Positions 6,785-6,931 of a stretch of 32,000 nucleotides of DNA are shown piece after piece (positions within the stretch are counted from its first letter, which is position 1; each line of letters starts with the position of its first letter). Origin of the DNA: Candidatus Jordarchaeales archaeon (GTDB taxonomy: Archaea; Asgardarchaeota; Jordiarchaeia; Jordiarchaeales; Freyrarchaeaceae); the NCBI GenBank assembly GCA_038858525.1, contig JAWCFL010000001.1, positions 90,001 to 122,000 of the forward strand, read 5' to 3'. Below the pieces are notes generated by a model, which saw nothing but the letters and a program-made list of their open reading frames with translations, did not search any database and had not been told where the DNA came from. Position numbers and translations under genes: made by a program.

Positions 6785-6931
6785 TGGTGCCCCCGGTGGG
6801 AGTTTCAGGCAACGCCTCTTGAACCCACGACAACTCGGTATCTGGCTGGGATTTTTAAACGTCTTCAGCCTCGCCCCCTTTACTGGGTCGAGCGCTGTAG
6901 GGCATTTGACTCCCAGCTAAGCTACGGGGGC
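6785..6931 (-). tRNA. tRNA-Phe(GAA) with four introns: 22/23 (6897-6909), 30/31 (6870-6888), 37/38 (6840-6862), 59/60 (6802-6817); CCA encoded
   Basis: Removing 13+19+23+16 nt leaves exactly 73 nt plus CCA: GCCCCCG TA GCTT AGCTGGGA GAGC G CTCGG CTGAAGA CCGAG TTGTC GTGGG TTCAAGT CCCAC CGGGGGC A; the 30/31 and 59/60 introns form clear BHB motifs. Confidence 0.92.

Follow-up and report, generated by a model that had tools for sequence, protein, structure and literature searches.

A 147-nt segment of an Asgard archaeal genome, lying within the 32,000-nt stretch of DNA analysed here (the window), raises the question of whether a tRNA gene broken into five pieces can be a working gene and, if so, how its transcript would be reassembled. 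The window genome belongs to the Asgard class Jordarchaeia, genus Jordarchaeum, and represents a hot-spring archaeon. An earlier, sequence-only reading of the window had proposed a tRNA-Phe(GAA) gene with four introns, had taken three introns per gene as the probable maximum on record and had drawn its comparison from the Thermoproteales. The proposed gene is real and well supported, with a structure conserved across two genera, while the maximum proved to be out of date and the Thermoproteales are the wrong context for a member of the Jordarchaeia.

The tRNA-Phe(GAA) gene is encoded on the minus strand, from window position 6931 to 6785, and these coordinates are exactly those first proposed. 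It comprises five exons and four introns in 147 nt, beginning with the G at 6931 and ending with ...GGGGGCACCA at 6785, where positions 6787-6785 encode the CCA. Removal of 6909-6897, 6888-6870, 6862-6840 and 6817-6802 (13, 19, 23 and 16 nt) leaves 76 nt, consisting of a 73-nt tRNA body plus CCA, which ARAGORN identified as tRNA-Phe(GAA) with a full cloverleaf. The spliced product has an acceptor stem of GCCCCCG/CGGGGGC, a D-stem of GCTT/GAGC, an anticodon stem of CTCGG/CCGAG closing the loop CTGAAGA, and a T-stem of GTGGG/CCCAC, and it carries the GAA anticodon, G20, G37, A73 and the encoded CCA. Standard and linear numbering coincide for this tRNA, and the inserts thus fall at 22/23, 30/31, 37/38 and 59/60, the four sites originally named.

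Exon 1 (6910-6931, minus strand, as are all parts of the gene) spans tRNA positions 1-22, that is, the 5' strand of the acceptor stem and the D-arm up to G22, and does not vary among the genus's four genomes. Intron 1 (6897-6909; 13 nt) interrupts the 3' strand of the D-stem at 22/23 and is followed by the 8-nt exon 2 (6889-6896; positions 23-30). Intron 2 (6870-6888; 19 nt) splits the 5' strand of the anticodon stem at 30/31. Beyond it, exon 3 (6863-6869; positions 31-37) is a 7-nt micro-exon, GCUGAAG, that contains the entire anticodon and is invariant in five genomes. Intron 3 (6840-6862; 23 nt) occupies the canonical site 37/38, exon 4 (6818-6839) contributes 22 nt (positions 38-59), intron 4 (6802-6817; 16 nt) lies in the T-loop at 59/60 and exon 5 (6785-6801) supplies the last 17 nt (positions 60-73 plus the CCA). 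As had been anticipated, scanners were blind to the unspliced locus: ARAGORN made no tRNA call there, and the Rfam tRNA model failed to find it at its gathering score and, given a 401-nt stretch, still failed at E<=10. An essential tRNA overlooked by both tools in an Asgard genome is an annotation gap that this gene fills.

The same four intron sites were found in four related genomes, three of them from the same genus (G001, Candidatus Jordarchaeia archaeon QC4; G002; and G003, Candidatus Jordarchaeum sp. LHC_1308) and one from another genus of the same family (G004). Within the genus, the exons matched at 76/76 positions and the introns were 75-81% identical, with indels; in G004 the corresponding values were 71/76 and 63%. 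Across the five genomes, introns 1-4 measured 13-16, 17-19, 22-26 and 16-17 nt, respectively.

Independent evidence for the junctions came from environmental sequences, for which metagenome contigs were scanned with the first 21 nt of exon 4 as query. These 21 nt were identical in the tRNA-Phe genes of nine environmental contigs, which had 0, 1, 2 or 4 introns. Three genes were uninterrupted tRNA-Phe(GAA) genes (L075, L079 and L084), one had a single intron at 37/38 (L076), two had introns at 37/38 and 59/60 (L083 and L081), one had introns in the D-loop and at 30/31 (L080), and two had four introns and matched G003 and G004 (L077 and L082). When the window gene was globally aligned with the uninterrupted genes L075 and L079, exactly four gaps opened, of 13, 19, 23 and 16 nt, with no splicing motif used; the only ambiguity in their placement was trivial sliding where exon and intron share a base. 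We relied on pairwise alignments here, as MAFFT, given interrupted and compact genes together, fused gaps one and two and put the D-arm and the anticodon arm in the wrong place. Four exact gaps against natural compact genes show that the four inserts are real relative to those genes.

From positions 18 to 65, the compact and less interrupted environmental genes (L075, L079/L084, L076, L083/L081 and L080) are near-identical to the spliced product, and several of their introns occupy the same sites as here (30/31 in L080, 37/38 in L076 and L083, and 59/60 in L083). The seven environmental genes other than L077 and L082 differ from the window gene in having other acceptor stems and fewer introns. 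The sites in common may reflect either shared origin or repeated gain. Across seven sequences (the five genomes and two compact homologues), all 21 cloverleaf pairs were intact, with two-sided changes at acceptor pairs 2-71 to 6-67; in G004, the acceptor pair C4-G69 has become G4-C69, a compensatory change.

We then scored motifs of the bulge-helix-bulge (BHB) type at the exact boundaries, using a model of a 4-bp central helix, 3-nt bulges cleaved behind their second base, and flanking helices on the outer and inner sides. All five genomes showed full central pairing (four of four) at introns 2 and 4, along with both flanking helices, and both motifs are strict throughout. For intron 4, the central helix is TTCA/TGAA, the bulges are AG|A and AC|T, the T-stem GTGGG/CCCAC provides the outer helix and GGC/GCC the inner one (hBHBh'; dG -10.2 kcal/mol). 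For intron 2, the central helix is CGCT/GGCG with bulges CG|A and AG|G, an inner helix of CCC/GGG and an outer helix of 2-3 bp (dG -7.9 kcal/mol), and the intron-side variants AGCG and GGTG retain four pairs. The sequence-only reading had drawn both motifs correctly, down to the helix, bulges and inner stem at 59/60 and the helix and bulges at 30/31. Helix and inner-stem scores as good as these were both met in only 0.0001 (intron 2) and 0.001 (intron 4) of intron shuffles.

The other two introns belong to the relaxed class in the window genome, with three of four central pairs each. The central helix of intron 3, CTGA/CCAG, contains an A-C mismatch here but is fully paired in G001 (TTAG) and G004 (TCAG), the two genomes in which its motif is strict; 10% of shuffles reached its helix score in the window gene. 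When the four introns are taken together, the exact boundaries allow 14 of 16 central-helix pairs to form, and a fraction of 0.0002 of the intron shuffles did as well. Half of each central helix is exon sequence, so changes are possible on the intron side only, and nearly all of those observed keep or improve pairing. Relaxed motifs are common by chance, according to a 2026 preprint (10.64898/2026.10.13.758758), and shuffles met the helix scores of introns 1 and 3 in 40% and 10% of cases; for these two introns it is thus chiefly the compact homologues and the strict motifs in relatives that provide the support.

The genome also encodes a plausible set of splicing enzymes, namely a single RtcB (PF01139) and two EndA-family proteins (PF01974) of 191 and 198 aa that share 32% identity. 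The EndA paralogues lie at L050:1474-2049 (minus strand) and L051:1189-1785 (plus strand), on contigs C3 and C43 of G000. Paralogue 1 had as its best match the catalytic subunit of A. pernix EndA (3P1Z chain B, E 2e-48). It retains the counterparts of Y125, H133, R157, K164 and W183 of that enzyme, has a complete catalytic triad aligned to A. pernix EndA alpha and carries Lys at K44 of the Crenarchaea-specific loop. In the A. pernix enzyme, from which the residue roles are taken, this loop confers cleavage of relaxed introns and of non-canonically placed ones (PMC3241643). Paralogue 2 lacks a His where the catalytic one would align, as expected for a structural subunit. The presence of a catalytic EndA that has the specificity loop alongside an EndA that lacks the His makes a heteromeric splicing endonuclease of broad specificity, with these two as its putative subunits, likely.

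How intron 1 is handled deserves closer scrutiny, since its motif is the weakest of the four. The central helix, TGGG/CCCT, has three of four pairs, with bulges AG|T and AC|A, an outer helix of 2 bp and an inner helix of 1 bp, and in four of the five genomes the motif is this weak, with a dG of +1.1 kcal/mol; its helix score was reached by 40% of shuffled introns. Moreover, D-arm inserts are, in the preprint's account (10.64898/2026.10.13.758758), the class that tRNAscan-SE most often leaves in the 'mature' tRNA. One could thus propose that three inserts only are spliced, and that the 13-nt intron 1 is kept as an enlarged D-arm or removed in some other way, but we judge this very unlikely. The insert sits within the 3' strand of the D-stem, which its retention would disrupt, and the uninterrupted homologues have nothing at 22/23. 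Its cut sites are in exact BHB register, with a unique boundary at which any slide alters the mature sequence, and in G002 the same site forms a strict hBHBh' motif (TGGG/CCCA with four of four central pairs, a 3-bp inner helix of TGA/TCA and a dG of -3.3 kcal/mol). Finally, the catalytic EndA has the loop that in A. pernix permits cleavage of relaxed-motif and D-loop introns (PMC3241643). The evidence thus favors four spliced introns.

The gene is embedded in conserved signals. A promoter block, GAAAA[AG]TTTTAAATAT (6957-6972, minus strand), is conserved in the five genomes amid divergent flanking sequence, and its TATA box, TTTAAATA, occupies -34 to -27 relative to the mature 5' terminus. 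On the other side, a T-rich tract, TTTATTTT (6772-6779, minus strand), begins 6 nt past the CCA and is probably a transcription stop, and a T-run occurs within about 15 nt of the CCA in every orthologue. From general knowledge of archaeal transcription, the conserved block and the T-run would fit an archaeal promoter, a short leader and an oligo-T stop. The upstream neighbor is the gene for ribosomal protein S10 (7015-7332; Pfam PF00338, E 6e-32) and the downstream neighbor encodes a class I aminoacyl-tRNA synthetase of the Trp/Tyr type (5584-6684; Pfam PF00579, E 1e-37), both on the minus strand like the tRNA-Phe gene.

The window locus is apparently the only tRNA-Phe gene of the genome. ARAGORN, with introns allowed, made 11 tRNA-like calls in the 2.09-Mb genome, several of them miscalled and none Phe; BLAST of exons 1, 4 and 5 against the genome matched this locus alone; and a scan of the genome for YTGAARN loops closed by 5-bp stems, in which a 37/38 intron was optional, returned nothing tRNA-like. 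The search for an intact tRNA-Phe elsewhere, one of the points raised in the first reading, thus found none within the window genome, a metagenome-assembled draft of 63 contigs that is 92.7% complete. Searching the five genomes with this gene revealed no further copy in any of them, including G002, which is 95% complete in 8 contigs.

The draft state of the assembly leaves some room for the idea that the locus is a decaying pseudogene or relic that has taken up insertions, with a working tRNA-Phe encoded in unassembled DNA. This is highly improbable, as no further copy turned up in any of the five genomes, the 95% complete one among them. Furthermore, the exons are invariant in the four species of the genus (76/76, versus 75-81% for the introns, which vary in both sequence and length), G004 shows the compensatory acceptor-stem change, the promoter is conserved and all four inserts are in BHB register, and on these grounds we rejected a tRNA pseudogene. 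An assembly artefact or chimera imitating an interrupted gene, conceivable for any metagenome-assembled genome, can hardly be credited when the same structure recurs in five independent assemblies and in the environmental contigs L077 and L082. We also rejected self-splicing introns, as group I and group II introns need a ribozyme core of hundreds of bases and the inserts here are 13-23 nt long with no Rfam intron match, as well as a split or permuted tRNA gene, as the five exons follow one another in order over 147 nt and share one promoter.

With four spliced introns as the favored reading, the motifs also predict an order of removal. The motif of intron 2 uses C25-T28 and C32-T33, and that of intron 3 uses C32-A35. 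With intron 2 present, the outer helix of intron 3 is 1-2 bp, and without it 6 bp. Upon removal of intron 2, the dG of the intron 3 motif shifts from +4.1 to -4.8 kcal/mol in the window gene and, across the five genomes, from a range of +3.8 to +9.2 to a range of -3.0 to -8.4 kcal/mol, with the sign flipping in all. Intron 3 would be recognizable only after intron 2 has gone, because the anticodon stem, which intron 2 splits, serves as its outer helix. Sequential removal of closely spaced introns is known in multi-intron tRNAs (PMC8450103) and has been seen by RT-PCR in Cyanidioschyzon merolae (PMC3728597).

These observations suggest the following course of maturation. The gene's own TATA promoter would drive a precursor of about 150 nt that holds four short protein-spliced introns, in the D-stem, anticodon stem, anticodon loop and T-loop. 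A heteromeric splicing endonuclease, probably composed of the catalytic EndA with its crenarchaeal-type specificity loop and the EndA paralogue without the catalytic His, would cut each intron at its BHB motif, and RtcB would ligate the exons. Introns 4 and 2, which have strong independent motifs, are predicted to go first and intron 3 to be excised only once intron 2 is gone, while intron 1, with its weak relaxed motif, would depend on the broad specificity of the enzyme. Splicing and its order are here predicted from gene structure, conservation, motifs and enzyme genes. Taken as a whole, we consider it very probable that the locus is a working tRNA-Phe(GAA) gene, present in single copy in this Jordarchaeum-genus Asgard archaeon, whose TATA-driven precursor loses four BHB introns through EndA cutting and RtcB joining, intron 2 before intron 3. 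The locus offers a conserved test case in which one endonuclease would face four neighboring sites, two of them with mutually exclusive motifs.

Global folding did not recover the motifs. RNAfold, run at 37 and 70 C, gave minimum free energy (MFE) structures of the full precursor and of the intermediates that lacked all four central BHB helices, and each local BHB was less stable than the local optimum fold. It follows that recognition has to depend on the enzyme or on the kinetics of folding, and as MFE folding was uninformative on the motifs, the dG values above were obtained by evaluating explicit motif structures. In the same MFE fold of the full precursor, we observed a 7-bp helix between TCCCAGC of intron 3 (6845-6851) and the complementary D-loop segment GCTGGGA of exon 1 (6911-6917), both on the minus strand. 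All three congeneric genomes preserve this helix (with a G-U pair in G001 and as 6 bp in G003), and G004 lacks it.

We next compared the gene with published multi-intron tRNA genes. A maximum of three introns per tRNA gene was still the textbook figure in the 2021 tRNAscan-SE 2.0 paper (PMC8450103). For Freyarchaeia and Atabeyarchaeia, Valentin-Alvarado et al. 2024 (PMC11291895, Supplementary Data 4) have since reported 92-95% of tRNA genes to be interrupted and have tabulated four-intron genes for Freyarchaeia (Arg-TCT, Ile2-CAT and Leu-GAG) and for Atabeyarchaeia-2 (Trp). An October 2026 preprint by Goswami et al. (10.64898/2026.10.13.758758), whose census is built on tRNAscan-SE gene calls, gives 2.0-2.4 intervening sequences per tRNA gene, and up to five, for Jordiarchaeaceae and Freyrarchaeaceae. 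Both studies, as far as the preprint's account goes, concern organisms of the same class as that of the window gene and describe short introns of BHB type, placed canonically as well as non-canonically; interruption affects most tRNA genes in these Asgard sets, and standard software misses introns or whole genes. The window gene, with four introns of which three are non-canonical, fits this genome-wide pattern of several introns per gene, as do the few and partly miscalled ARAGORN calls in its genome and the two other interrupted tRNA genes of the window. We found it described neither in PMC11291895 nor in the text of the preprint outside its per-gene tables. The four-intron tRNA-Phe is thus a new example in a lineage already reported to have crowded tRNA genes, and since four and five introns per gene are on record there, the limits of tRNA gene interruption are unchanged.

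More distant parallels exist. In the Thermoproteales (Sugahara et al. 2007, 2008, as cited in PMC8450103), BHB introns occur at many positions and neighboring introns are removed sequentially; Pyrobaculum calidifontis, for example, is credited in the same paper with 71 introns in 46 tRNA genes, and the splicing endonuclease of the order is described as an (alpha-beta)2 type of broad specificity. These archaea belong to a different phylum and, in that account, have up to three introns per gene, whereas the window gene has four, with micro-exons of 7 and 8 nt. The nuclear tRNAs of C. merolae (Soma et al. 2013, PMC3728597) include a two-intron tRNA-Phe(GAA) and share with the window gene the presence of multiple ectopic BHB introns, in the D-stem, at 37/38 and in the T-loop, and RT-PCR showed the order of their removal to follow motif stability. 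In this eukaryote, which has at most three introns per gene, splicing is experimentally documented, whereas for the window gene it is predicted.

We also searched for tRNA-Phe in the sister family, represented by six genomes (G005-G010). One of them, the complete genome G006 from the same order, has tRNA coordinates identical to those of the published complete Freyarchaeia genome, whose tRNA list contains no tRNA-Phe (PMC11291895). Six kinds of search found none in G005-G010 either. BLAST with two precursors and a compact homologue returned nothing, patterns for the 5' exon and D-arm matched tRNA-Thr, tRNA-Asn or coding DNA only, the micro-exon pattern matched non-tRNA sequence only, and no tRNA lay 3' of the S10 gene; the one unlisted match that the Rfam tRNA model gave at E<=10 was an initiator-type tRNA, not Phe. 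The odd 'Ser AGA' entry of the published table reads as tRNA-Cys. A wider reading can be formulated, in which the single tRNA-Phe of the Jordarchaeia has been missed by annotation across the class, matures by an obligatorily ordered cascade of four cuts and ligations (intron 2 before intron 3) that passes through the 7- and 8-nt micro-exons, with the D-loop/intron 3 pairing as a possible guide to the fold, and persists in the sister family as a more fragmented or split copy; we regard it as tentative and, in this full form, rather doubtful.

Two loci in G006 merit description. At L114 (G006:1326540-1326900), the 'Ser AGA, 25.2 bits' entry reads as tRNA-Cys(GCA) with U73 and several introns. 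At about 149-308 of L085 (G006:1729288-1729447), just downstream of tRNA-Ile, lies the initiator-type tRNA(CAU), whose 5' half contains inserts; the Rfam tRNA model gives it 25.8 bits, and it does not appear in the published Freyarchaeia table.

Finally, the window contains two further interrupted tRNA genes besides tRNA-Phe. Inspection by eye suggested a tRNA-Glu(CUC)-type gene at 4604-4742 on the minus strand (5' GCCTCGGTGGTGTAGTC..., 3' ...TTCAAATCCCGGCCGAGGCA), whose D-loop, anticodon loop and T-arm hold some three inserts. At 19836-20030 on the plus strand lies a class II tRNA gene of 195 nt that has A73 and encodes its CCA, which ARAGORN, with introns allowed, called as Leu(TAG) with one 105-nt 'intron' that must in fact comprise several introns.
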